A stretch of 61,040 bases of DNA, filler included, from 13 parts of 13 records of this genome joined end to end with filler, not necessarily neighbours in it, one strand, 5' to 3'; numbered from the whole stretch's first letter, positions 4,555 to 56,300 are shown. Translations and numbers: made by a program. The notes: generated by a model from the sequence alone, not told the origin.

Positions 4555-6412
4555 TCATCTCAGCAAAAAGCTCTGGAAAAAGTTGAGTTGCGGAGTTGTT
4601 TGTGACAAATACCTGGTGGCGCGATGGTTGTTGCGCTGGTAGTCCGGCAAGGTGTCTGGAACCATAAGCAATATATTAGAGAGAAGATCTACATGCCCCG
4701 CACAAAGCAACGGCTTGCGCGTGAGCGTTGGGCCAGAATGGGTGTGGATGAACGCACGGGCGATACGCGTGATGACCTCAGTGATGAAGGGCACGTCCAC
4801 AATCTTCAGCATAAACCGCAAGCCAATCGGGTACCAGCCCTAGTCGATTTTAGAGACAAATACAAGAGATCAGAGAAATGTCAGAGAAACCAGAGAGATG
4901 CATGAGAGAAGCGCGAAATGAGAGAACTGTCACCTGGTCGAGGATGACGATCCGCCCGAGTGATGCAAACGTCGCCTCAGCGATCTTCTCGGGTGAGCAG
5001 GCAGTCTTCTTGAAAAAGTCCATCGCGTCAATCGTATGCGTCACAGTCTTGCTGTCTGGAACCACAAGCCACAATCGGTCAGCTAAGTGGTCGGCCCAAA
5101 AAGAGCCGAAAGCTGCACAAGCCGAAGCTGTCAAAGCAAGCCGAAACGTCTCAAGCCACAGTAAAGCCCGTAGATTGCTCGCGTACTGCGGAGAGATCAG
5201 ATGTGTACTGCACAGAGACGCATTGCTGCGAACAGACACGTTGCTGCGAAGAGACAGCTTGTGGTGCGTACCGTAGAAATTCGAATCCGTGGGTGACGGG
5301 TGAACCACGCAGACGTCGATCCCATGCGACTTGATCTCTGGCGCGATGGACGCCCCGAACTCCGACAGAAACGCCTTCGTCGAGCCGTACATGGACGTGA
5401 ACGGCGTCGCCATGAATGAAGCCGGCGACGACGTGAACGCCACCCCGCCGGGTCTCCCCTCGGCCTGCATCCGGCCGATGAAGTGGTGGGTGATCTCGAC
5501 CGCCGCTGTTGCATTGCAGTGCAGGTTCGCGAGGTGCGTGTGGATCGGCATCGACGTGAAGAAACCTATCATCAGAGAGAGAGATGCGAGAGTGAGGCGA
5601 AGGCGGAGGAGAACGTGAAGAGAAGGTGAGGATGAGATCAGGATTACCCGTGAGGATATAGCCAGCGTTTGAGAACACCAGCTGAATAGGGAGATCATCT
5701 GTCGCGGCTCGGATCGAGTCCATGTACGCTCCAGGCGTGGATAGATCTACGCCGACCGCGACGAACCTATCGCCCACAATCGGTCAGAAACAATCTCCGG
5801 ACATTGCGATGGGCGGAGGGCTCTCACTTGACGCCCGCGATCCAGAAGCGGTTCCGGAGCTCGAGCACTGCAAACACGCCCCAACCTGTCAGAAAATAGA
5901 GCTACAGTACACATCCCAACGGCAGATTGCGAGGGGCTTACTTGTGGCGTCGAGCGTGGCATCTGGGGCAGCTACAATTACGATATTGATGCCCTGATCT
6001 GCGAGCATCACCGCCATGGCCTTGCCAATGCCGCTGGAACCCCCTGCAGCACAGATGATCAGCGACATGAACTGGCCAGAGCCCCTGAGCCAGCGGCGGC
6101 GGCAGCAGACAGCACGGAGACAGGCTAGGTTGCGCACCTGTGACCACAGCCCACTCAGCGCCGTACTTGCGCCGGAAGTTCTGTGACTTCCAGCTGTGTG
6201 ATGTGACGCGTCCAATCGCACGGTGAGAAGCAGTGCCGCGCGGGCTGGCGGCTGGCTGTGCTGCCGGACTGGCTGGGCAGAGCGGGGCGTGCTGCTACGT
6301 ACAACCAGCTGGCGACGATTGGGGCGAGGTACGTAAAAGTCATGGTGAAGAGCGAGCCCCAGAAGGAGTAGTATCCGAACCATGCGACCCAGCCCCACGC
6401 CTCGGTCAGCAT
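4555..6412 (-). CDS. Membrane-anchored short-chain dehydrogenase/reductase, KCR/17-beta-HSD12-like; multi-exon; 3' end approximate
   Basis: Spliced YGAEWAVVTGGSSGIGKA (introns 6302-6194 and 6137-6044), FSNAGY, SS..MYGSTKAF catalytic YxxxK, and a hydrophobic N-terminus. Confidence 0.85.
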
Positions 6413-6651: not shown

Positions 6652-6751
6652 NNNNNNNNNNNNNNNNNNNNNNNNNNNNNNNNNNNNNNNNNNNNTTAAT
6701 TAATTAANNNNNNNNNNNNNNNNNNNNNNNNNNNNNNNNNNNNNNNNNNNN
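6652..6751. other. Artificial contig spacer (44N-TTAATTAATTAA-44N). Identical spacers at 9793, 13016, 16808, 21612, 26702, 33633, 40044, 43519, 49190, 53212 and 57359
   Basis: Same 100-nt block each time; TTAATTAATTAA places stop codons in all six frames. Confidence 0.99.
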
Positions 6752-9229: not shown

Positions 9230-10689
9230 TGCTCGACGCCGGCCGCCAGACGCTGTCCGGGCTCGTCGCGTCGTCGGTTCGAGTCGCAAGCTCGTGCACC
9301 TGCGTGCTGCTGCGTGCCTAGCACGCAAGCGCACCAGAAGAGACGACTCGCGCGCGCGTGCGCACGCGGTGTACATTCGATACATCGGTACCGTGGAGAA
9401 GGCTGCAGTGCCCAGGTTGTCAATTTGGCGATTGAGCAATTTGCTGCAAGCGCGTGCAACAGAACTCAACCGGTGCCGCCGGTGGAAAACCAGAAGACTT
9501 GAGCAGATGAGCACCGTCGGCCGGGAGCGATGCGAGGTGATGAACTGATGATATGGTGCCACGCCTGATCGACGACGTCGACAGCGAGCCGCCTGCCTCT
9601 GCCTCTGCCGCCCGTTGCTGATCGCCAGGGAGGGGGGCATTGAGTCGATCCGTGAGTGCTGGGACCCTTCAGCTCTCTGTGTGGGTGGCGTCAAGATACT
9701 ACTCTAGAGGCAGCGAAAGGATTTTGTGGCACAACTTGTGTGCTATCGGCCGTACTGTCCCACGCTGTGGTTCGACGCCGCAGAGACTACGGNNNNNNNN
9801 NNNNNNNNNNNNNNNNNNNNNNNNNNNNNNNNNNNNTTAATTAATTAANNNNNNNNNNNNNNNNNNNNNNNNNNNNNNNNNNNNNNNNNNNNAAAACGCA
9901 ACCCCTACTGGCAGCCCTATCACTGATGCCGCGATCGACTCGGTGCAGACTGGCACTCGGGGATCCAGTCATCCAGCGGTCCGCATCAAATCTGAGAAAT
10001 CACGGCTACAGTAGGATCCTACTATGTACTAGTATTAATAGTAGCTAGTCGATCGGTCAGCAGCGAGGGTCGCGTGATCATCAGGGTGGTGAATGAGCAT
10101 GAGCACGTGCACGCCCGCACCCTCCCGCAGGGCGCAGGCCCTCCCCGCTCCCCGCTCCCGGGGTGGGCAAAATTGAAAATACATCCAGTCGCGTCGGGTT
10201 GTGCCCATACCCGGAAAAAAAGGCCTGTCTCAGAAGGAACGAAAACCTTACCTGTTACCACGGTGGTAAGGTTTTTGAAGACCTTCAGGGGGGTCACAAA
10301 CCGACTGGATCCATGACTGGATCCTCGGACGACTGTATCACATTGTACTGACCCGCGGTAGAGGCAAGGCCTCGGATGTCGCCGTTGTCCCGGATCGCCG
10401 CGCGCATCGCCGACCACGCACCCCGACGCACGGGCAGCACAGTGTACACTGCGTGCTGGTCGAGAGTCGCAAACACAGGCGGCGCGCGCGAAGAGGTACC
10501 GACACAGCGAGCTGCGGCCGCCGGTGCTGGGCACAACGACGACGCTCGCGCCGCCGAACCGGCGCTGGCTGCGTGGCAGGCAGGCGCACGCAGGCAGGTC
10601 GAGGCGGCGAGCTGATGGACATGACTCCCTCGCGGCGGCGACCGATATGGCGGCGCTTGCATTGCGTTCACCGTGGATTGCTGGCGGCG

Positions 10690-22209: not shown

Positions 22210-25200
22210 ATGCTTCTCCGTGCGCCGCCGCTAGCAGCGGTGGCGATCTGCCTCGGCGTGGCCCAGGCGCAGCAGCTGGACCGCTGCGAGTCCGAGTTCC
22301 AGAACTCGCGTCCCGCAAATCTGCCACGCCTGTGCTGGCCGGGCGGCTCGCTGTCGGGCAACGCGGATGAATGGAGCTGCAGCGCGGAGTGTGCAGCAGT
22401 TTTTGTGCCATTCTGGGAGGCCTGCGGCGAGACAGTCCTGGAGACGACGACCCTTGTCGGCCAAGACTTTGCCCCCTTCTACAACCTGTGTCGGGCTGGG
22501 ATGATCGGTCGCGCAGCGACGCCTCGAGCACAGCGGCGGTGCACCAGCGGGAACTTCAATACGCGGAAAGCGGCGGCAGAGGCGGTGTGCTGCCCGGACG
22601 CCGACTCGTGCGCGGGCAACCCATCCCTGCCGACGCACTGCAGCCTTCAGTGCGCTGTTGCTTATGGCGAGTTTTACGAGGACTGCGCGGCGGTGGCTGC
22701 AATCTCCCACTCTAAGGTCGTGGACAAGATGCAGCAGTTCCACCGCACATGCGTCGATGAGTCGGACACTGCGGAGCTGCTGATCGTGCTGAGCGACATG
22801 CCTCAGAACGGCTGCAGTATTGACACCAGCGGTGCGAGAGCAATCGCTGACGGTGGAACGATGATGGCAGGTGGGCAGGTCTGGCTGGGCTCGTACATCT
22901 GCGCCCAGGGCAACACGAACCTCCAGCTCGTCATCGTCGATGTCAGCGCAGAAGGCATGGTAAATGCGCTGTTCAGCTTTGAAACTGACAGTGGCTGCGC
23001 TGGCCGCTATCAGCTCTCTGGCATGATGACCGACGCGCCCGGTGGGCGACCGGGGACCATCAAGCAGCTGACTCTGGTCCCTGAGCAAGGTGGAGGCTCG
23101 TCGCAGGCAGGCTGGATCGAGAACTCGTGTGGCTACGTCAGCGTTGGGATGAGCGGAACGGTCAGCCAGGCAGACAACGGGGACCTCGTCTACCAGGGCA
23201 CCATCGACTTTGCTGGGTGCGATACTTTCCTGGTGACGTTGCCAACGGCGTCTCCGGCGCTGTTTTGTCCCAATACCGACGCGGTGAGGACAACGGCTTC
23301 ATTTTTCGCAATGAAATCCATGACTTGCCGAGACAGCCATAGGACAGCCAGATGGAGAAACTGAAACTCATTCGCGGTGTTTGTAGGGCTGGCTGCTCGG
23401 CTCTACTATGTGCTACTCGCGTTTCGAGGAGGAGATGTCTCTGGTGCGGAGCGCGGCGTGTCTGACGTCTCTAGTTTATCTTGCCCCGAGCCACACAGCT
23501 GAGGTGTCTTGGTAAATTGACTTTAAACGAATGTCGTTTTTTCCAGGAGGACGCCGAAAGATTCTGCCAGGACCTTGACGGTGCGAAAAGGCTCTTTCTT
23601 AATCGTTTTGCCAAGACAGGCTCGGACACTCGTGAAGGGAAGCATTGACATAAAGGCGTGCCCGCAGGGCTCGCGCATGTGGCCGTGGTACCGACGCTGG
23701 ATGACCTTAACTTCCTCACTGTCCAGATTGATCAGCACGGCTACCACACCTACAATCTTGGTGCGTTTCAAAACCTTCTGTCTTCTTTAGGTGTCATATA
23801 CATGGGAACGATGATTTTGTCGAGACAGGCTCGAGACACACATACGGAGCCGAACTAAAAGCAAGTGTGTCTACTGCAGGCGCAACTTGCCCTGGGACCG
23901 ACAAGACGCTGTGCAACCATATCGACGGCACCCCTGTCACAATCACGCCAGAGGGTTACTGCTTCGAGGCGCGACCGGATAGCGTCTGTGACGAGCCCGA
24001 TTCATACACCGGCAACACGCAGCTCGGGGTGAACTCCAACGGCCTTCTCGACGCAAGCCCCGCAGCGCGCCCCTTCTTCTGCAGCATGCCTCCGCAGCGC
24101 GCCTCGAGCTCTCGCGCTTGCGAGAACGATCTCAGCGGCACGTGGGAAGGTGATCAGACCTCGGGCAACAACGGCAACGGGGCATCCGGTGGCAACCGTT
24201 TCGTGACGACCATCATTGAGTCAGGTTCAACATACACAGAGGAGTTTGTCGCCTTTCGGACAGAGCACATGGAATGCTCCGATCCCTCTGGCGACGCCGA
24301 TCAGTCGACTCGGTTTCACGATGGCACCTCACAGTACGTCTCCTTTGAATCATGTCAGCAAGGCTGCCTGCACGACGACAGCTGCAACGGCATGATTGAG
24401 TACGGCACCGACATCTGTGAAACCCACATCGACCCACTGTCGCAGCGCCCGGTGTGCAGCGGTGGTCCTGGGCGTTGCATTGCGGAGAACCTCTGTACCT
24501 GTTACCTCGTGACGGGCACTTGCGCAGAGCCGATCCCACACCCTAACTATATGATCTGGCGGATGCACCGCACCCCTGCTGTCGTTTCTTCATTCACCGC
24601 ATACTGTGCCAATCAAGAACGGTGCGACTGGTTTCCACCTGGATTCGGTGGCCAGATCTCGCAAGACAGAACCCGCGTCACCCTCAGCAATGGACTCATC
24701 GGAGTGCTTGCAGAAGACGGCAACGAGATTGTCTTCGAGAACGGATTCTTCTGGACGCGTCTCTCTGAGTGTGGCTCCTTCGGGCATGAGAGAGTGCCCT
24801 TGCCTGTGCCTGGTGGCTTCGCGCCTGGCGATTCCTTGGTCTGCCAGGGTGTCTGGCCCTCCGGCGACTCGCGGTTTTCAGTCAACCTGATGACCCGTGA
24901 TGATGACATCGCTCTGCACGTCAATCCACGTGATTGCGTGAGCACGGGCGCCGCCGCCGGTGGCTGTAGCCTGTCTCCGCGTGGACAAGTTGTGCGAAAC
25001 ACCCGCGTTGGTGGGGTCTGGGGGTCTGAGGAACGGAGTGGAAGTTTGCCCCTGCGGCACGACAGCACCTTCTTGCTGCGAATCACCGCAGGCCAGACTG
25101 ACTACCGCATCACATTCGAGGGCGAGAGCACGGCTGGTGAGTATGGTGGCACTGGCACGTTCGGGCTGCTGGCCGAGGGTGCAGAGTGCAGTGACGGCAC

Positions 25201-26479
25201 AGATCCTGACCAGTCAGTCCAGTGGCGCGACGGTGTCTCTCAGTACGTTAGCTTCGACCAGTGTGAGGCGGCATGCTTGGCGGACGGCCGCTGTGCAGAC
25301 ACGATCGAGTACGGCATTGCTAGTGCTTGCACTGGCGCCGGCGCGTGCAAGTGTTGGCTGGTGCTGGAAGGCGCGTCGTGCTCGAACCCGATACCACATG
25401 CCTCGTACAGCATTTACCAGCTTGGGAGGGCCGAGCACAGCTCATCAACATTCACTTATGCCTACCGCTCCGAAGCTCCACCGAGCGCGGTAACGCATGT
25501 CGCTCAGGAGGACCACACGCTGCAGTGGTGTGATTTCAACGTCGCACCACGTGTCAACCTCGCCACGACCACCTTCCAGGGCGACACGTGGACGTTAGTG
25601 CGCCGTGTGAAGCAGGGTGACACGTGGCATCCAGCGACCGACGAGCTGCTGGGCACAGATGAGTACGGAATCTATGGCGATGCGACCAGCGACTCCACTT
25701 TCAGCATCCCGTTTGGGGACAACGGGCGCTCGGACCTGCACTGGGACAAGATCATGTTCGCGAGCGGCGACATGTCGATGTGGGTAATTTTGGACAAAGC
25801 TGAGATGGACCGCTGTACAGATGGCCACAATAAGCAGGGGCAATGGCACCCAACGATCGCGGCGGCCAGCGGCCACGCAGCACCATACTCAGTCTTGCAG
25901 TACTGCCGACGCGGAAATGAGGAAGACCCCTGGATCTCAGTGGAAGAGCATCCTTCACAGGTGGTCTACGGTGAAGGCTCTTTCAACGTCGCACAGTGGT
26001 GTGGCGGTGATGCGCAGTGCCCAGCCAGCTGCTACCTCGAGAATGCGCTGGACCCCAGCTACCAATGCCCGAACACCTGTACACACTGCAACGACGACGC
26101 CATCATTGGACACGGTGGTGCGAACGTCTGGGTCCGCATGACCACAGCGGGAGGCGGGCACCGCCGTGCTCAAGCCAACCAGTTCCATCTGCCGACCGTT
26201 GACCACTGCGCAGCCAGTCACTTGCAAGATCGACTCGAGCGTGTCAACAGCGCTTGCTGTCCAAACGGTCAGGGTTGCGATGACGGTCTGCCCGAGGCGT
26301 GCGATATCGAGTGCGCGATGGAGTACGCAAAGTTCTATTCCGATTGCTACGTGCCGTTGGTGGAAACTTTTGGCATGGACTCCAACTCGCAGTTCCAAAC
26401 GTTCCATACGACGTGCATGCACACGTTCGATACAGGGAGCTTGCTCAACACTGCCGCCACAGCCACGAACTGTCAGTGA
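22210..26479 (+). CDS. Secreted multi-lectin protein (signal peptide, Cys-rich modules, C-type lectin-like, PAN/apple-like, galectin, fibrinogen-like); 5 exons
   Basis: Introns at 23284-23386, 23444-23546, 23581-23667 and 23761-23879 join the two long ORFs through CPNTDAGW..CYSRF..AERFC..AHVA. Galectin motif IALHVNPR..VVRNT..WGSEER. Confidence 0.8.
23284..23879. mobile_element. Cluster of four introner-like introns sharing the motif TTGCCAAGACAGGCTCG(G)GACA, one copy inverted
   Basis: Copies at ~23325, ~23607 and ~23816 on +, and at 23481-23517 on - with a 12-nt insertion. Confidence 0.7.
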
Positions 26480-31798: not shown

Positions 31799-32607
31799 TG
31801 GCAGAGCTCTTATACTACGGAGACACTTCGTGCATCTTGCCTATCAAGTGGTGTCCGGATCCACCTTACCAGCGCTGGTCGCCGCTTATAGTGGAGCAGC
31901 AGGAGCGGAGTGCCAGGAGCTTCAGCCGGAGCCACACGAGCAGCAGTATACCCATCCGCACGGACGAGTCCAGCGCCACTATCGATTTTGGCAGGTTGAC
32001 ATGGCATAAATGCGCAGTCTGATAGCGTGGGCATTTTTCAAGCACAGCTACTGGTTGGTTGCGAACTCTGAACAGTCGCAAGTAGCCTGCTGTGTAATCA
32101 GCAGTCTCAATTGTGCAGCACAGGCACGACGAAGTTGTGCCACGCATGTAGTGGTGATCTCTCTTGCGCACCGCTTGACGCTCAGGATCGAACAGCTCTT
32201 CGGCGCGGAGCTCCGAGCCACAGGGGACTGTCGAGGCGTCAGTGGCGAAAGAGCGCTGTGGCGAAAGCGGCAGGAGTGGTAATATGGAGACACTCGATAA
32301 AGCCCGTGTACCCTTGAATGGATTCATGATTGCGCGCGAACCATCCAGCAAGTAAGCGCGATTGCGGGCGCCAAACACCGCTATCTGAAGATGATGCAAT
32401 CGTGGTGGATAGTCCACGTCGGGGTAGGCATGCAGATATCAAAACGCGCGTCGTGACCGAAACACGCCGGAGTACGAGCAGGATGCGCCGCGACACAGTC
32501 TCATAGGCAGATGTCACAGTCGACGATATCGTAGGACACCACGGCAACATACTGGCAGGAAACACAAACGGTTGTACCGGCACTTGGGTAAGAGAAGCAC
32601 ATAGTAC

Positions 32608-33513
32608 CTAAGGTACTATGTACTTCATGGCATCACTCTTCCGAAACACCGCGTCTTCGGAGCAACTATGGCACCTAAGACGCGCCTTGACACCACTTTG
32701 CTGCGAATGCAGCCGGACCTTCTCATAATGTCCTGCCGTGAGCCGGTGCGTGTTGCGTGCGGACCAAGGTGGCGCGAAAGAATACCGATGCTTCTCGTCC
32801 TGAATCGGGGCCTGTTCGCGAGCCTTGTTCTGAGAACCGCTGTCATGTGCTCTCCAAGTAGGTCTGGGAGCCACCTCTGGAGACACCCTTGCGTCGAGAT
32901 AAGCCGCGGTGGCGGATCCACTGGGCACAGCAGGCTTCGTGGGCTGCTGCATCAGCTTTATCGGCTTCAGCGAAGTTCCACAAAGACCGTCGGTAATGTT
33001 CCGGTCCACGGGTTCCGCTGCTTCAGCTGGCGCTCCTGCCCCATCGTGCCTACGTCGAGCACCAAATTGGACGGGTCGCCCATTGCTTCGCCAGATGTAC
33101 TGCCGTCGCGCCACCGTCCACACCTTGGGCTCGGCCGCTGATGTGGCCGCACCGGTACGCTCCGCCGCGGGCGCGGATTGTGGTCGTTCGGTCATATGGC
33201 CACAGCCATGTCGCCTGGCCTGCTCGAAGCACGGGGTCCGTCTCGTGCGCAGATGACCAGGTCCCACCACCTGAATGTTCTCCACCACTGGTTGCAGCTG
33301 CTCGACCACGCTGGCCGTTCGGCCCTGGCGAATCGTACCGGAACGTACGACCCACCGTCCCGCCTCCGGTCGGTCGGCACGAGGACGGGCTGGCCTTCTG
33401 TTCAGGAGCTGACTAGGACGACCGGCACCGCCTGGGCATCGCAGCGAGCCTGGCTTTCTCGTGGAGGGCGCCTCCTGCTGCCGCTGCTGCCCCTGCTGCC
33501 CGTACCCCACCAT
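32608..33513 (-). CDS. Hypothetical basic, disordered protein
   Basis: ATG-started ORF of about 300 aa with no recognisable domain. Confidence 0.35.
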   Translation of the reverse strand: MVGYGQQGQQRQQEAPSTRKPGSLRCPGGAGRPSQLLNRRPARPRADRPEAGRWVVRSGTIRQGRTASVVEQLQPVVENIQVVGPGHLRTRRTPCFEQARRHGCGHMTERPQSAPAAERTGAATSAAEPKVWTVARRQYIWRSNGRPVQFGARRRHDGAGAPAEAAEPVDRNITDGLCGTSLKPIKLMQQPTKPAVPSGSATAAYLDARVSPEVAPRPTWRAHDSGSQNKAREQAPIQDEKHRYSFAPPWSARNTHRLTAGHYEKVRLHSQQSGVKARLRCHSCSEDAVFRKSDAMKYIVP

Positions 33514-33732: not shown

Positions 33733-36700
33733 GTAACCGTACAGCCACTTGTAGTCGCTGAAGCCGTAGGTAGTAAAACCAGTAATGCGCGAGCCAGTAC
33801 CACCTTGTGAGCGCTCGCCAAAGGGAAACCGGTGAATATTGCCAGAGGTGTAGCTGCCACCGTGCTTGTTTCTCTGCACGAATCCTTCCACAGCTGCGCT
33901 TGTGAAATTATCAGTCCGTATCATATTGTCCAAGGTGTCTTCCGTCTCAACGTAATGGTGAAGATCGGCAAGCGTGTGTTGGAGCCCAGTGCTGGCGTCG
34001 ACAGCTGAGCCGCCTGATGTTTTGTCATTGTGTGCATAAAGGTACACATACTGCGGAATATTCCAGTCTTCTGTTGTAAATCTGTAGGTAGCGTCGCGTT
34101 GCCAGCCACCGCACGTTTGCAGGTATCCGTCCATGTCCCACTTGTTATAGACAAGCTCGTTAATGGGCGATCCGTCCTTTGCATTAAAGGGGAAGCGGTT
34201 GTGGAGGTCTGACGGAGGGACGTTTCCTCCTCCCCAGGGCGCCTGACCAGGGCACGAGAGGGGCTTAACCAAGTCCACGTACATGTTCTGGGTTACAGTT
34301 ACGTCGACCCAATAGTTTTCTTCAGACTCCACGCTTCCACACTCGTACGGACGCGTCAAGTCGGAATAGTCATCAAACTCGCAAAGTCCCAGGTCATTGA
34401 TAGGCTTGTTTGGATTTGTACCCGCCTGGCGCTGGACCTTCCGAGGTTCCGTATCCAGTTTAATGGTATAGTAACCGAACGTTGCGCCCTCAACGACATT
34501 GATGGAAATGGGGTCATGCGTCATGATATTGACGTTGTCTGTTGGTTCTTGTCTCAGTGTATCCGTAGTGGAAGCACCTGACTCTATCGTCACACCAGCG
34601 TAGTCGTTGTCTTTGGTGTGAATTGTTCGAATATGGTGGCGGAACGGCGTGTGGACGTCGTTCCTGCCGCCACATGTCTGATCCGGTGTCAGGAACTCCT
34701 CACACGCATACCCACCATGTCCGCCCTCCTCCAGGGTTTCATTTGCCGCGATAAGCTGATCCATTGTCATGGGAATGTACATATCTCCAACGAATTCTTG
34801 AACCTGGTAGGAATTGGTGTACGACCAGTATGTGTCACCATAATGGCTCTGTGTGATCGTGAACGACGTGAAATCGATCATCACCCCTGCGCGCTCATCT
34901 ACCAGATCGTCAACTGGGACGACCTTGATGGTCACCGGCTCATCCCATCGGTGTGTATCCTTTCCTTCTGCTTGCCCCCCGGTGTGGGTGAATGTGACAG
35001 AGGGTGGGTCGAATGTTGTTTGAGGTGTCGCGTCGGGGGTCACGACAATGAGAACGAGCTCCTCTTCGACGACCAGGATGGGCTCACCCAGATACTGCCG
35101 CTGCACGTGCTTAGTTCCTGGCGACGAGTTAAGTCGAATCTGGAATGAACCATAGTGACAGTCCGTATTCGTAGGATTTTCGTACAAGTTGGAAGTTATT
35201 GTTCCTTGGCCGTAACCAGCCTCTTCTGGGTCACCAGCCACCCATCCTCCCTGGAATGTGTCGACAATGCTATCAACAGCTTCAGACGCACCCCAGAAAG
35301 CACGTGAGTCACCCTTGACGTCACCGCGACATTCCATCGTGTGAATTGTGCACGCGAACTCGTCCTCTGGCTCAGTGAAGGCCGGCCCGATGCCCTTGAA
35401 CCCACGATTTGGTTGAGGGCTGATGGCACGGGAGTCAACGCCAGGAGTACATGCTTTGTAGCCATCCACGCTGCGATGCTGAACCGGCTGTCCGACAGGT
35501 GTGCAGTCATCGAAGGTATTTCGTATCGACGCAGGGTCCACGTCATACGGCAACCCACCAGAGGTGTACCTGTCCCAGTAAGGATCGTAATTCGTCCATG
35601 GGCGGTTGTCGATTCGGAAACACCTGTCCGACTTGCCGTTCTTTACATTCGGGTCATCGCCGAAGCAGGCAGGGTGGTCCGGATCGGTAATGTACCCGTT
35701 GCCAGAAGCACCAGCTTCTCCACGCAAGCCCCCGCCGCCAATCCCGTCATCATGGACCTGAAAACCACCTGCACTGGCCCAGTACTGCCCAGGGACGTAA
35801 GTACACGTTGCGATGTTGGAATCGGTTTCAGTGCACGAGCCAGGAGTAACGCCGAAGTCAGTCGATTCGCTCAACTGGCAATTCGTTGAGTCAAAAGCTG
35901 TGGCAGTTGCAACCAGTGTCGAAGTACAGCTGTCTGCGCTGTCCTCCTGGTCCGGCGTGCCGTCTTGATCAGAGTCTGAATATGTTCCATCAACATAGGC
36001 ACATGTGGCAACAGTACTATCAACAGCGGCGCACGACCCAGGCGTGTCACCATAGTCGCCAGTCGGGGTCAGCACACAATTGGTTGTGTCAGTAGTTGTG
36101 ACAGTAGGAACCAGTGTTGATGTGCAACTGTCTAGACGAATAACTGTGTCCAGAGACCCACTCGTTACACTGCGGCCTTGGAAGCCACTGCCCGAGATCC
36201 CATCCTCGGCGTATGCGCCAGCACGATCAAACTCATGGTACCAGTAGTTGACCCTGGGCGGAACCGCTTCAGTGTATTCACACCCACTAGGACATTCGGC
36301 AGTACCGTCAGTGTTTGCGTCGATGTCACACGTCGGTGTGTGCTCGGCTACAAAGGCACACCCGTCTGCACAGCCTGGTGGGTCTGTGCTACTGTCTAGT
36401 GCGCACGACTGTGATGAATCTGTCGGTGCGCCAGTACAGGAAGCGGAGACGATACTGGCTGTACCTGTGCAGGTAGCCGGTTCGGCATCCTGGACTTGCC
36501 TACGTTGCTGAGCACGTCGACGGCCAGCGCTGGCCTGGGTGTATGTGCATGCTTGCTGCGCGTTGTCAGAGTTTTTCATAACTGCATCGCACTCACTCGA
36601 GTCAGACAGATCAGTAACAGCATCGCATGCTGCAGCATCTGTTTCATCGGCTGAATCTCCGGTTGCTGTCTCAACGCAATCATACGTGGCCTGCGAGTCG

Positions 36701-39700: not shown

Positions 39701-40002
39701 TGGACTGCCGTGTGGTCCCCTGACGTGGGCAACTCGCAGCTCCAGTTCGGTTGCAAGAAGTTCGGGGCCTCTGGCTGCTGGTCGCCGCCATTGAGCACCA
39801 GTTCTGGGCAGTTCGCGTATCGGCACACGGCGTCCGGATCCGTGCGCGTGCGTAGGACCTGGTTGCCGACAACGTCTATGCGATAGTCCGAGCTGCCCGA
39901 GACCGTATCGGCCAGCGGCACAGGGCTGCCATACGACCAGGCAGGTCCGTCCTGATGACCACCGCCAGTCTCCACAGGTACCACGCCATCATACACGGTC
40001 AT
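33733..40002 (-). CDS. Fragment of a giant acidic extracellular protein with Calx-beta/Ig-like repeats and Cys-rich repeats; likely truncated at both ends
   Basis: Intronless ORF of about 2090 aa. Five repeats of F-x-x-x-[ND]-W-x-x-P-Q-x-V-x-x-x-A-x-D-D type (FDSTNWQVPQ, FSTTNWNTWQ, FTDKDWNVPR, RWDEPVT, FTTEDWNIPQ). Confidence 0.85.
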
Positions 40003-40480
40003 ACCTACAGGCTTTCAGCGACTACAAGTGGCTGTACGGTTACNNNNNNNNNNNNNNNNNNNNNNNNNNNNNNNNNNNNNNNNNNNNTTAATTAATTAAN
40101 NNNNNNNNNNNNNNNNNNNNNNNNNNNNNNNNNNNNNNNNNNNGCACGAGATAGAGTATAAGAATAATCACGTAAATGATGACAACAATAGGGTTATCAT
40201 AGGGTTGGGCACTCAGAGTTGCTAAACTGCTGAGTGCCCTCGCCGCCCGGTGGCGTACGCTCCAGACGACTGACGTGCAATCTGCACTAATTCTTCTTGA
40301 GGATTGTTGGGAAATGCACGGTAGAGATTTGTTTGGTGCAAATTCAATGTAAACGTCGAATCCTCGCTCGCGTGAGGACCAGCAGCACACAACATACCCA
40401 TTGGCGCTAGCTACCGTACAACGGCTACGATTGCACCATTTGCAGTATCAGACCACTCTAACGCGAATTGCTATTCATCG

Positions 40481-43278
40481 CTAGTGACTAGCGTTGTACA
40501 AGCTGGACAGTCTTTCCACGCTGACTCTCGCTATAGGCGAGGCCGAAGCGGGCGAGGCAGCGAGCTTGTCGACATTGGCTCGCTGTTTCAACCGTTTCAT
40601 CAAACCTGCATCGCACGTCACATCGCAGAGTAAGGAAGCTGCAAGTCCATGGTATAGCAAGCAGCAATCGATCCGAAAGCACTAGATGTTCTACTCATCA
40701 GTTCACTCTTTTGCATCAATTCAATTCGTCTCACCGGTCAGCGTCTGTGATTGAAATGCCTTGGTGAAGACGCTGCTCTTGCTTTGCTTGCCAGACAACC
40801 GATCTTGCCACCACGTCCAGAACTCTTCAAAGTCAACTGAACCGTTCCCATCACCATCCATCTCTCCCATTGCCTCCGTAAGCTCCGTATCACTCAGCAA
40901 ATTGGCACTGTCATCGTCGTCACCATTGCTGCCTTTGAGCTCCCGGGCCAGCTGCCGAATCTCGTCTACGTCAAGCGTTCCTGAGACAAGGCCAAATGCA
41001 TTAGCGTCAACAAAATGACGGAGGCAGCTCTAGCAGGTCAGATCAGATCCGGAAGCGGAGCAAGAAGGAACTCACCGCTGTCGTCTGCATCAATGGAGTC
41101 GAATATTGTCCGTGCCACACTTCGATCTGCATCCGCCGTCATCTCTTGTTTCTCTCTTCGCTTCTTGGGGCTCAGGGTATTGATGAACTTGCGCATCCCT
41201 GACTCCATTGCATCGGCCTGTGATGCCGCATCAGCCTGTGCGGAGACAAACTTTTGGTACCAGTCCTTGAACTCGTCGTAATCCACACAGCCATTGCCAT
41301 CGGCATCCATCAACGCCATCGCAGCGTCTAAACCCGCCTCGCTCTCGATCTCAGCGCCAAGAGTTTTGGCAAGGTTAGCCACCTCCTCGCGATCTAACCC
41401 ACCGCTGCCATCGGCATCCATCTTGTCAAACAGGCGACGGACAACATCGTCGGAGTGCTGCAACGGTGGAGGCTTGACAGGCGGAGGCCGTGCTTTTTGG
41501 TTTGTCCCGCCTCGTCGCCCTCCAAAGAACTTTCCGAAGACACTGCTTTCCCAACCGGAACTGCTTTCATCGGGGTGAACGGACAGGTCCTGCGCCGCTG
41601 GTGGTGAATCCTCGTCCCTCTTGACCGTCTCCGTCCACCAGCTGAAAAACTCGTCGAAATCCACTTCACCGCTGCCATCTGCGTCCATCACCGCCATCGC
41701 AACATCTAGCTGCTCCTCGGTCATACTCTCACCCATCATGGCCTCGCCAAGCTCTGATATTTCACCACGATCGAGCGTGCCGTTCCCATCCACGTCCATA
41801 GTATCGAACACTTGACGCACCTTCTCACTGTAGCTGAGATTCGGGTCTGAATTGGTCACGTCGAACTCAAGCTTGATCGGGTTGCCGTTGACACCGTCCC
41901 ACTCTTCCCGCACCGCAATCGCGCAAGAAACCGGACCGAACTTCGATGCTACCAGCAAAGACTTTACCGCAACCTTCTTCTTCGCTTTCGCCTCACGCAC
42001 CGCCAGCTCGCGAGCTAACTGTAGTGCGCGGCGTTTGGCCGCGTTGCGCTCCGACAGCGCTACCGCTTCATCAACAACTTCGATCAACATCAGGGTCGCG
42101 CCATCGCGCGTTGCACGCTTGTCCGCCACGCGCCTCCTTGCATAGAAGCAGCGCAAGCCACACTGCATGGTGAGCACAGCGGCACGCACTGTCACGAACC
42201 GCTGCCTTGCTACCCGCCCACGAAAACACGCCTGGATCCTTGTCGCCGAGAATTGCATAATCCTGAGGCACTTTCGCTGCTGGTGGCCACGCCACAGTGC
42301 CTGGACCTTGGCGGCGCTCTTGTTCAGGAGTTTCATGTACTGCCGGGCAAGATAGCCACGCCAGCCACACTGAATTACAAGTGCGGCACTGTGCAACTGC
42401 GGCTCGAGGGAGTGGGGGATGTGCCGGATGTAATTCTGCTTCTGAATCTCGCGGTCAAGCACAGAAACCTGATCCTGGAAGCTGGCCTGAAGCAATGTGC
42501 CCGCGAGAAGCCGGTATGACTGACCTCTGCTGCGGCTCTTTTGACCATTCGTGCTGCTGCCTCTGGCCACCTGCATCTCGCTTGCCAAGAAGGTCGGTGC
42601 GTTCGTTGGCTGCCTGATGAAATTGGCCACATACGTGCCTTGCTGCTGCATCAGACTCCCTATGTTCGGCGCGCCTGCAGCGCGACCGAGCGGTGCGAGG
42701 TGTGCCTCAAGCTTACGTCGCACCTGACTGTCCTCGGCTCCTTCCCCGGGTCGCACAGAGAGGGGCTCTCCGCCGGTCGTGTGCCTTCTGCGGCTACCTG
42801 CGGGCTGGGCCACACGTCCAGACCGGCGCCTGAGATCTGCCTGCACAGCTGGGCTGTCCACAGCGATGAACTGCTCGTGTAGACTGGCGGAGTATGGTGT
42901 CATCAGCATCGCCCGATCCCTTGCAGTCGACGGCAGACCGCCGGCGGCCACGAAGCTAGTGCGATGCCAGTCCGGAGTGTGCAGCCGACCGTCGCGGTTG
43001 AACGTCTTCGGCCGGGGCACCGCAACCTCCGTCCACAGAGGAGTCTCACCACGCGCGAAGCTCTCTAGCCCAGGGTCGGCCCAGCCCTCCGTCCCCAGGC
43101 TGGGCAGTCGCCTCTCCGACGACACGGCATCGGGTGCTGCTTGTCTCCGACCCGCCTGCGCTCTCTGAGAGCCCGTGGAGCGCTGCCGCTTCCCTCGCGA
43201 TCCGTACGCCCGCGCGTTGTCCAGGCTGTTTAGGATCCGCGGCGCGCTCTTGGACATCAGCCCTCGCTCGTCGCTCAT
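40481..43278 (-). CDS. IQ-motif and multi-EF-hand calcium-signalling protein; last exon uncertain
   Basis: Four IQ motifs (IQCGWRGYLAR, VQALWRGH, IQACFRG, MQCGLR) and three EF-hand pairs (DVDGNGTLD, DADGSGEVDFDEF etc.). Intron at 41075-40981. Confidence 0.85.
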
Positions 43279-43493
43279 CTCCTGCGCTGTGGCCACACCA
43301 GCTCAGCGCCTCCGAGCACAGAGACGACTGAGCGAGAGAGAGACCCCACGGCTCAGAGGGAGACGACTGTGGCTTCCACTGAGGGCGCGCTCTTCGACAT
43401 CAGCCCTTGCTCGCCGTCCATCTCCCACACTTTTCTGAGTGGCCACACCCGCTCCTATGCTCTGCGGTGTGGAAGGCAGGGAGAGGCGACAGC

Positions 43494-53311: not shown

Positions 53312-56300
53312 GCTGTTGATGCCCTGGGTCACGATGTCTACATTGATCCGAATAGCACAACGTTTGCTCGTGGAGACTGGAACTTACCGCAGTTCGTGGT
53401 CATTGGAGCACGCGATGACTTCGCTGCTGAGTCCAAGCAGGCCGTGCACACTGTATATGCATCGTCAGAGAGCGCGGACAAACACTACAGGATTGATGAA
53501 ACGTCAGTGCTGAATTTGACTGTCATCGACAACGATGAGTTTGCGCTCATCGTCGACATCGACCCGCGGACTGAGGTGTCACAAGGGACCATTCAGCTCC
53601 ATGAGGGCAGCAACTCGGCCGAAGGGACGAACACTGGTTTGTATCGGCTTTCTCTTGGCGCTCAACCTTCAGAAGAAGTCACAGTCCGGATCGAGGTCTC
53701 CGGGCTGTACAGGGACGACATGTTGCTGTCGGACGCATTCAACGTCCCTGTACATCACGTGACGTTCACTCCCGAAAACTGGGACACAGAGCAGTCAGTC
53801 TACCTGACTGCTGTGGATGACTGCCAGGACGAGGGACTTGAGCAGTTTTTGATCGTCAACACTTTGACAGCACGAGGACGCGGCGACGTGGTGCAAAACA
53901 TCTCAGTAGCGCTGATGGACGATGACTTTCTTGAGGAACCTGCGGGATACAAAATGTTCCACCCGAGAGCAGGACCCCTCACCGGCGACACGATCATTGA
54001 ACTGGCAGCCGAGGTCAACGATGAGAATGTCTTCGGCACGAATCTGCGGATAGGCGGTCTGGGTATTCGGTGCCGTTTCACGGATAAGTACGGAGACTAC
54101 GACGAAACCACCGGGGATTTTGCACAAGAAAACATTCTTCGGACGGAGCCACAACCAGACGATTCTGCCAAAATTACCTGTGTTGGTTCTGCCAAAATTA
54201 CCTGTACCACGCCGGAATGGCCCGCTGAGGCGGAAGGTGAGTCGCCTTTTCTGTCTGGCTCTTTGTTCGTTGCAATACGGACGACTCTGACATTGCATTC
54301 CTTGCACAGTGGATGTTGAAGTGAGCATCGACGGCGGTACGTACGTGCCTGCGAACATGACTTTCCACTTCTACAGATTCGAGACCATGGCTGCTAGTCC
54401 GTTACTCGGGCCAGAGACAGGGGGAACTCTGGTCAGCGTTCACGGCACGCCCGATGCAGGCTATACCCCTTCCTTTAGGTTTGGAAACATCACGGTTCCT
54501 GGCGTACGGGACGAGACGAGAATCGCAAGCTGTGACAGCCCGGCGTATTCCGGCTCCACTTTGTCTGAATGCGAAGGTTACAATAGCTCGGCCGTAGAGA
54601 TCAGTCTCAATGGGCAACAGTTCTCGCCTGTGGGAGATTTCGTGTACTACAGCAGAGATGCGCCTTGTCTTCACAGAGTTGATCCTGCAAGCGGACCCGT
54701 TGATGGCGGAACCAATATTTCCGTTGCCTTCACTGCACCATTTCTGCGTACGCATCCATCCAGTTTTTTCATCCTTGATTTGCACTGCCCAGCAGTGTTT
54801 ATGCTGACCCGCTGATTGCGATTGATGTTGCCTTTCCCAGCTGGAGCGATATGGTCTTGTCAATTCATGAGCAGCCAAGGAAATGACGCTGCGCTAGGCA
54901 CAGTTTCCTATCTTCAGGGACACCGCCAGCTGACCTGTGTGACGCCACCATTGGCTGGATCCAACGTCCAACTGCGCGCAACATTGAATGGCCAGCAGTA
55001 TTCCACCAGGAGTCTAAATTTTTCGTCTTACGAACGCCCGACCGTGGATTCGATGGCTTCTGCTGATTCCAACATCTGGCCGCAGGTGAGCGTTGACATA
55101 CGGTCGCTCGTGCCGATTGAGCTGACTGGCGTGATTGCGAGCTCAGACGTGGCTGCTGTAAGACTGTGGCCGCAAGAACGTTCCAACGGGGAGTGGGTCG
55201 AGTTCAATGGTCTTCATGCCAGCGAGAACAAGCTCAGTTTCACCATGGGAAATCCCGTGGGCGACCTGCGGCTACTAAGCGCTGGAGCAGATGCACGGGT
55301 CTTGATATCGTTGAATGGCCAGCAGTTCGATGACACTGGTAAAGTGCTCAGCCTATTTAATCTGAGCACCCCAGCTGTGCTCCAGTCTGTGAAACCTGCG
55401 TCAGGCACCAAAGAGGGCGGCACCACCGTCAAGCTTACCGGCAAGAACTTCGCTGGCCTAGCGACACTACGGTGTAGGTTTGAGACGCCCACTTCGACGG
55501 AAGACAAGGAGGCAACATTCGAGAGCTCACGGTTGGTGAGCTGCCTCACACCGCCGAGCGACGATGGAGGCGAGACCGTACCTGCAGATGCAGTATTGAC
55601 GATCACGAATGGCATGGACCTGTGGAGTCTCGAGCAGAGCTTCAGATACACTGCGACGAGTCCAGAACACTGCATAGCACAGGGTCCTGGTGTGGGCTCA
55701 CCAGCTGCGAGGCTGCGCGCGGGCGAATGGGCTTCGTTTTCAATTTTTGCCAAGACAAACGAGGGTGCATCCAGGAAAAACGGTGGCGACCAATTTTATG
55801 TCAGCTTGGCAAGTGATCATGATGAATACACTGGGTTCGCGATTGACCTGGATGATGCGTACTACGAGCCAGCAAGCTGGCCATCTGGTATCAACCAGAC
55901 AATGGTCCACTCACAGCAGTATGTTGCAGTTGACGGATCTGGGCCTCAGCCGGCCAACGCAGGCTCTTACCTCGGGCTCTACAACGTTACCCGAAGCGGC
56001 AGCTACGAAATAAGTGTTACAGCTGGTGGTACTGCCATTTTCGACAACCCTTTTGCGGTACGAATTTTCCCCAGTGACTTCGATGTGGAGAACTCGTTGC
56101 TCCAAGGGAGGGGAGGGCGATTGCAACGCAGCATGGCGGGTGAAACAGTGACATTTGATCTGTACTACCGTGATCGGTATGGCAACTACATTGACTTGGA
56201 CCCAAGCCCCGCAGTGGAGGTGTGGCTTGAAGGCATTGGTGGCATTGCCGACGTGACATTTAGGACCAATAAGGTAGCGGTGCATCACGCAAGTGCGACC

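Follow-up and report, generated by a model that had tools for sequence, protein, structure and literature searches.

Four clustered introns in a marine eukaryotic gene are very probably decayed copies of an introner family with inverted-repeat ends

The DNA analysed here, called the window throughout, comprises 61,040 bases and is not one stretch of chromosome: it was put together from 13 distinct contigs, each 3-7 kb long, with spacers between them. One contig (21712-26701) carries a five-exon gene whose four introns lie close together, and the origin of these introns is the subject of this work. Introners are the best-supported source of intron-gain bursts and are commonest in marine protists. 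We consider it highly probable (about 0.9) that the four introns are decayed copies of a non-coding introner family of about 110 bases with terminal inverted repeats (TIRs) of about 24 bases. Each spacer is made up of 44 N, TTAATTAATTAA and another 44 N (for example at 6652-6751 and 9793-9892, and at ten further places), so that genes on either side of a spacer are unlinked. Pfam matches on the other contigs (JmjC/JmjN, a kinase with RRM, EF-hand/IQ proteins, filamin/TIG, a family 2 glycosidase, DnaJ and Arv1) indicate a eukaryote. In a protein search, the best named relative of the window DnaJ reached at most 39% identity. The contig with the four-intron gene was present in 19 marine or seawater sequencing runs from 15 studies, 6 of the 19 being RNA.

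The features of this gene are collected in Table 1. Removal of the introns gave a single open frame of 3,891 bases from 22177, with a first ATG at 22210. Exon 5 encodes a Pfam Gal-bind_lectin domain (66.6 bits). The idea, formed by eye, that the intron cluster lies within a C-type lectin domain was dropped, as Pfam gave no support for it in the homologues that lack the introns. All four introns run from GT to AG, with a G as last base of the preceding and as first base of the following exon, and their G+C content was 0.45-0.52 compared with 0.56 over the whole window. A preliminary description of this DNA had listed four introns of 87-119 nucleotides at G|G junctions in one gene. The lengths and the open spliced frame agreed with that account, and every string that it quoted was indeed found in its place.

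Table 1. Coordinates of the four-intron gene and its parts within the window.
Feature	Coordinates	Strand	Length (bases)	Phase	Remarks
Host gene	22210..26479	+			five exons; secreted-looking, cysteine-rich protein with galectin domain; spliced frame open
Intron 1	23284..23386	+	103	0	old sense copy; spliced in X16 RNA contig
Micro-exon 2	23387..23443	+	57		frame and RNA contigs
Intron 2	23444..23546	+	103	0	core on - strand (probable antisense copy); spliced in X16, X15
Micro-exon 3	23547..23580	+	34		frame and RNA contigs
Intron 3	23581..23667	+	87	1	shortened sense copy, core 23606-23628; spliced in X16, X15
Micro-exon 4	23668..23760	+	93		frame and RNA contigs
Intron 4	23761..23879	+	119	1	best-kept sense copy, core 23815-23838; spliced in X15

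The introns are excised exactly at their predicted GT..AG ends in contigs from RNA runs. The contig of run X16 (oligo-dT) had the joints 23282>23386, 23442>23546 and 23579>23667, with introns 1, 2 and 3 removed, and that of run X15 the joints 23442>23546, 23579>23667 and 23759>23879, with introns 2, 3 and 4 removed. Introns 2 and 3 were skipped in two of three RNA runs and introns 1 and 4 in one of three. The remaining run, X10, had no splice joint in this gene, and one of its contigs (23659-23875) kept most of intron 4. Splicing in RNA, proposed beforehand as a check, confirmed that the four introns are real. A contig of 4,703 bases from run X1, which we guess to be DNA, retained all of them and differed from the window in 31 letters (0.7% divergence); in run X1, a G>A change at 23822 in intron 4 gave the base that is commoner at this position in the family described below. 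One contig of run X1 lacks 498 bases within 24405-24904, where the missing segment is bounded by CA..GA and the shorter side has only 23 letters. The host protein carries two similar cysteine-rich modules. This gap is not an intron; it may reflect internal repeats that were collapsed into one another, or a variant of different length.

Resemblance among the introns was assessed by pairwise local alignments with the splice sites trimmed and with 500 shuffles per pair, 12 tests in all. Introns 3 and 4 aligned with a score of 33, which none of the 500 shuffles matched; the score of introns 1 and 3 was reached by 2 of 500 shuffles and that of introns 1 and 4 by 5 of 500. The remaining pairs were unremarkable, apart from that of introns 2 and 3, which is taken up further below. 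Introns 1, 3 and 4 share about 22-25 bases ending 40, 39 and 41 bases, respectively, upstream of the 3' splice site; the core motif that had been noticed in these three introns is thus common to them above chance. No other place in the window resembled these introns. Allowing 2 mismatches at most, we saw no enrichment of the 12-base core there (13 found, 8.4 expected, and 13 reached by 7 of 100 shuffles), and when the four introns were compared with the window by short-word BLAST, matches elsewhere were words of 9-13 bases only. A regular-expression search for decayed copies, based on the ends, missed even the four known introns.

The family became visible outside the window, where the clue of four introns in one gene led to it through a single motif scan. 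The 19-base core TTTTGYCRAGACAGGCTCG was sought in contigs of public metagenomes and turned up in at least 120 contigs, with 127 matches among those listed. In 117 of the 120 listed contigs (one metagenome supplied 100 of these, a second one 14, and other records 3) the core lies inside one alignable element of about 110 bases with inverted-repeat ends of about 24 bases; three further ones (L013, L041, L053) hold it in an unrelated setting. Viral contigs, scanned likewise, did not contain the core. The host genes of the outside copies are unrelated to one another, and the family extends well beyond the one gene in which it was noticed. In the fetched contigs, which total 258 kb, we obtained 412 profile matches at E-values up to 1e-3, of which 302 cover at least 80 columns and are distributed over 111 contigs. 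The element-rich contigs hold about one copy per kb even when the copy that selected each contig is left out.

The profile used for this purpose had 110 columns and was built from 100 outside copies, with no window sequence. Applied unfiltered to the window, it ranked the four introns above every other match, with window-wide E-values of 4.6e-11 for intron 4, 2.7e-8 for intron 3, 0.0045 for intron 1 and 0.11 for intron 2. Among the four introns alone, the E-values were 3e-13, 2e-10, 3.4e-5 and 7.9e-4 in the same order. The plus strand carried the matches of introns 4, 3 and 1, and the minus strand that of intron 2 (23481-23520). The form fit of intron 1 favored the sense orientation (z of 6.8 versus 4.6 antisense), and the global fit of intron 2 the antisense one (27 versus 13 sense). 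Since the introns are recognised by a profile to which this gene contributed nothing, an explanation local to the gene is ruled out. A weaker copy that had been suspected at 6117-6129 has to be abandoned, as its E-value of 93 against the family profile corresponds to chance. A 14-base match at 55744-55757 was likewise rejected as a copy; it lies inside a coding frame and had an E-value of 0.15.

The near-full outside copies (n = 190) revealed the anatomy of the element. Sense copies numbered 163 and antisense copies 27, all of them bounded by GT..AG on the intron strand, with a median length of 113.5 bases for 148 sense copies and of 110 bases for 24 antisense copies. Conservation in the consensus vanishes outside the element ends. 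The ends of about 24 bases are inverted with respect to each other, and the intron strand starts with GTGCGAAAAACGG and finishes with CCGTTTTTCGCAG in both orientations. The ends quoted earlier for the window introns match these, which bears out the TIR type ascribed to them. Where outside copies are young, GTGCG and CGCAG stand exactly at the intron ends and are part of the inverted repeat, and a GTAAG/GTGAG-type subfamily occurs among the sense copies. In young copies the two ends pair into a long stem that spans the element, at about -34 kcal/mol (z of about -4). On the upstream side, the outer part of the repeat, GTGCGAAAAAC, corresponds to a 5' splice site with an A-run behind it; on the downstream side its inverted form reads as a T-run followed by CGCAG, that is, as a pyrimidine tract and a 3' splice site. 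The inner part of the repeat, CTCAAAAA, lies about 20 bases upstream of the 3' end. Only the outermost base is asymmetric, being a G on the coding strand at both ends. As it breaks the symmetry, this base is not part of the element and either stems from the target or was selected. The flanking Gs were incomplete: exon position -1 was a G in 170 of the 190 copies and exon position +1 in 128, with boundaries called regardless of flanks. The suggestion that such elements splice in either orientation was strengthened by the 163 sense and 27 antisense copies as well as by intron 2, which matched on the minus strand and was spliced out in RNA contigs. The RNA evidence thereby extends to old copies in both orientations.

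The element-rich contigs encode ordinary cellular proteins such as a cullin, kinases, a sulfatase, glycosidases and an ABC transporter. Removal of the copies restored reading frames in the clearest cases. In L037, the longest frame grew from 543 to 770 and 830 and then to 950 residues on removal of two sense copies and then of one antisense copy; in L015 it grew from 459 to 844 residues and in L048 from 464 to 684. The best named relatives of the ABC transporter were in a EukProt single-cell assembly (58% identity) and in a Florenciella transcriptome (55% over a third of the protein). These are weak hints, from protein comparison, that its relatives may lean towards stramenopiles. Window and element-rich contigs did not overlap by blastn or tblastx. 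With the copies masked, their tetranucleotide frequencies correlated at 0.947, compared with 0.956 between the two halves of the window and with -0.06 to 0.44 for the three unrelated contigs named above, and the masked G+C contents were 0.569 (window) and 0.600 (element-rich contigs). On this likeness, the two sources are close relatives or belong to the same lineage. Copy density differs about 16-fold between them, high in the element-rich contigs and low in the window: the contigs of the relative hold about one copy per kb, whereas the window organism keeps a few worn ones.

Local clustering, which had been described for the window introns, turned out to be a trait of the family. Neighboring copies are often 33-61 bases apart, or about 165 bases from start to start (for instance L048 1386-2119 and L015 2235-3043), and start-to-start distances peaked at 150-180 bases. 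Among 90 adjacent near-full pairs, 15 were 30-60 bases apart, where random placement gave 4.8 +/- 2.1 and, in 1,000 trials, never more than 13. The window exons of 57, 34 and 93 bases (160, 137 and 180 bases from start to start) fit this spacing. A preference for neighbors at about 50 bases yields micro-exons. Nucleosome-sized exons between introners were reportedly described for Aureococcus and Micromonas by Huff, Zilberman and Roy in 2016. The spacing here might arise from insertion into the linker beside a nucleosome sitting on the resident copy or, alternatively, from local hopping combined with a minimum workable exon size.

From these features a mechanism may be sketched. The element would land in an exon, at G|G sites, and become a spliceable intron; it would move as a DNA transposon by means of an enzyme encoded elsewhere. 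As both ends are the same sequence inverted, a donor stands upstream and an acceptor downstream in either orientation of insertion. CTCAAAAA is placed where a branch site would sit and may act as one. We tentatively extend this to a proposal that we ourselves hold to be doubtful, namely that the palindromic end supplies donor, branch site and acceptor either way and needs only the flanking Gs, and that new copies land about 50 bases away (about 165 from start to start), steered by a nucleosome on the resident copy. If this were true, the family would make introns and spread locally in an unusual way, and nucleosome-steered insertion would let clusters of micro-exons such as those of the window (57, 34 and 93 bases) build themselves. 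A 2-base GG duplication on insertion would make excision perfect in both orientations; to our knowledge, no transposon superfamily makes such a duplication.

The accounts of known introners place the family within a known kind. A survey counted 27,563 introners of 548 families in 175 genomes, with more of them in aquatic organisms (PMC9860276; PMC11282704); inverted repeats were present in 72 of 177 families and target duplications in 49 of 130 (PMC9860276). As published surveys accept families that have no duplication, a target-site duplication is not obligatory for introners (PMC9860276). Introns made in either orientation were reported for Aureococcus and for several Polarella classes (10.1101/2020.10.14.339549). 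In Aureococcus anophagefferens and Micromonas pusilla, as here, the elements consist of DNA, are short and non-autonomous and have inverted ends; copies number hundreds to thousands, and every one of them forms an intron whose removal by splicing leaves the message unchanged (PMC11282704; 10.1101/2020.10.14.339549); the Aureococcus elements are moreover reported to work in either orientation (10.1101/2020.10.14.339549). They differ in that one splice site is their own and the other stems from a duplication of 3 bases (Micromonas) or 8 bases (PMC11282704; 10.1101/2020.10.14.339549), whereas in the present family both splice sites lie in the inverted repeat, no duplication was detected and copies are spaced by exons of about 50 bases. 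The classes of Polarella glacialis also occur in both orientations with a bias to one, comparable to 163 versus 27 here, but have 3-8-base duplications and often GC or GA donors, where we found GT donors and no duplication (10.1101/2020.10.14.339549). Introner family 4 of Acanthoeca sp. (Tara Oceans), reported by Gozashti et al. in 2022, was compared by description and length and is similar in both: it has clear inverted repeats, no target duplication and an example of 109 bases (451-559), against medians of 110-114 here (PMC9860276).

Miniature inverted-repeat transposable elements (MITEs) resemble the family in being small, non-coding and abundant, with inverted ends and a hairpin fold. Unlike it, they usually have target duplications and are not built for splicing, whereas the ends of the present element double as splice signals. 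In the available parts of the introner literature, searched by description and not by sequence strings, no family with these ends was described, which is weak evidence of absence. Introners being a known kind, the family with these ends is newly recognised, unless it is already catalogued. It constitutes a well-documented introner family in lineages known from metagenomes only. Two of its features are odd, the want of a detectable duplication although both orientations work and the spacing of neighbors by about 50 bases.

The copies in the window are old, as the preliminary description had proposed. Their profile scores were 38, 29, 12 and 8 bits compared with a median of 61 bits outside, they agree with the young form in 55-66% of the aligned columns, and the end-to-end pairing is lost (z of +0.3 to +1.5). 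Homologues of the gene were taken from a protein search; they are metagenome proteins and were read as proteins only. P0009, P0007, P0003 and P0004 (80, 73, 77 and 54% identical) continue without interruption through all four intron sites, and the spliced window protein aligns to the homologues without a gap at every junction. The four copies would accordingly appear to have been gained after the split from the homologues of 73-80% identity, as judged from these protein alignments. The tails of P0007 and P0003 diverge where a GTGAG-like donor can be back-read, at sites that are free of introns in the window gene. Such read-through tails suggest that these proteins were called on unspliced sequence with introns elsewhere. 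P0005 has an in-frame insert of 29 residues three codons downstream of the site of intron 3, and this insert is absent from its close relative P0004. Neither the two tails nor the insert could be recognised as translated copies of the family, since tblastn performed no better than with reversed-peptide controls. Read at the protein level, the family of homologues points to intron turnover at many sites.

A number of observations weigh against the introner reading. In the window, a single gene carries the motif, and the 12 remaining contigs, which make up about 56 kb, lack it. Intron 2 is the weakest of the four assignments. That the intron-free homologues derive from DNA is suggested by the read-through tails just mentioned. 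As to the outside copies, boundaries were callable for 307 of the 412 profile matches. The preliminary description had called for a consensus, TIRs and a target-site duplication: the 110-column consensus and the TIRs of about 24 bases could be established, whereas a target-site duplication could not be defined. In a comparison of flanks, 167 copies showed no direct repeat of 2-6 bases above re-paired controls, and one third of copies, some of them young, have no downstream G, so that a 2-base GG duplication is not proven. No transposase was found among the 25 Pfam families listed of the 49 found in 144 reading frames of the element-rich contigs. The outside copies would be introns to judge by frame restoration, and the bulk version of this test was weak: 158 of 190 frames were open after removal, a one-base shift of the boundaries still left 136 of 190 open, and in the 52 contigs with at least 3 copies the median longest frame was 202.5 residues before removal, 214.5 after it and 216.5 with shifted boundaries. 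Likely reasons are miscalled boundaries of many partial matches and other introns left in.

Among the alternatives, the one that fares best accepts introns 1, 3 and 4 as members of the family and takes intron 2 to be unrelated, with a reverse-strand match by chance. We hold this to be unlikely. The claim that intron 2 carries the motif on the opposite strand stood up in the profile search, where the minus-strand match ranked fourth in the window and lies between three sure copies, although it amounted to 7.6 bits only and its window-wide E-value is the 0.11 given above. It did not stand in the shuffle test, where the reverse complement of intron 2 against intron 3 was equalled by 11 of 500 shuffles and is by itself not significant after 12 tests. 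The core is interrupted by a 12-base insert and the z-scores of the two orientations are nearly equal (4.7 sense versus 5.3 antisense), but the ends of the intron resemble those of the family and the global antisense alignment runs from end to end. With 103 bases and a G|G junction, intron 2 is also in keeping with the family, and the homologues lack it as they lack the other three.

A second alternative, that a MITE landed in four pre-existing introns and marks rather than created them, is very improbable. MITEs frequently insert into introns, and the window copies are too decayed to show crisp element ends; against this, intron length equals element length (87-119 bases versus medians of 110-114), the match of intron 1 spans columns 3-103 of the 110 of the profile, the inverted repeat of young outside copies coincides with the exact intron ends, and the homologues are intron-free at all four sites. 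It is scarcely credible that no mobile element is involved and that the motif common to the introns is kept by selection as an intronic signal, be it a small RNA or a site for splicing or regulation, or else arose from copying of introns within this gene: the restriction of the motif to one gene in the window and its fixed distance of 39-41 bases from the 3' splice site would suit such a signal, but hundreds of copies exist in unrelated genes elsewhere, Rfam had no match for 23200-23950 at E-values up to 1, 7 of the 31 differences of the strain diverged by 0.7% fall into the 412 intron bases, so that the introns are not conserved, and common descent from one element explains the fixed distance.

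Some further observations concern the other contigs of the window. The contig at 33733-40043 (6.3 kb) has inverted ends of 42 bases with 95% identity (33733-33772 versus 40002-40043) and consists almost entirely of one minus-strand reading frame of 2,109 residues that Pfam does not match. Such a contig could represent a large element, mobile or linear, or else have arisen in assembly. A palindrome of 33 bases with 91% identity is located at 32594-32626, and a direct repeat of 64-71 bases with 77% identity at 43241-43304 and 43384-43454. Finally, the same 18 bases (AAGACCAAGTATCAGATT) close one contig (13015) and open another (43619), which is probably a shared repeat or a graph overlap where the assembly broke.

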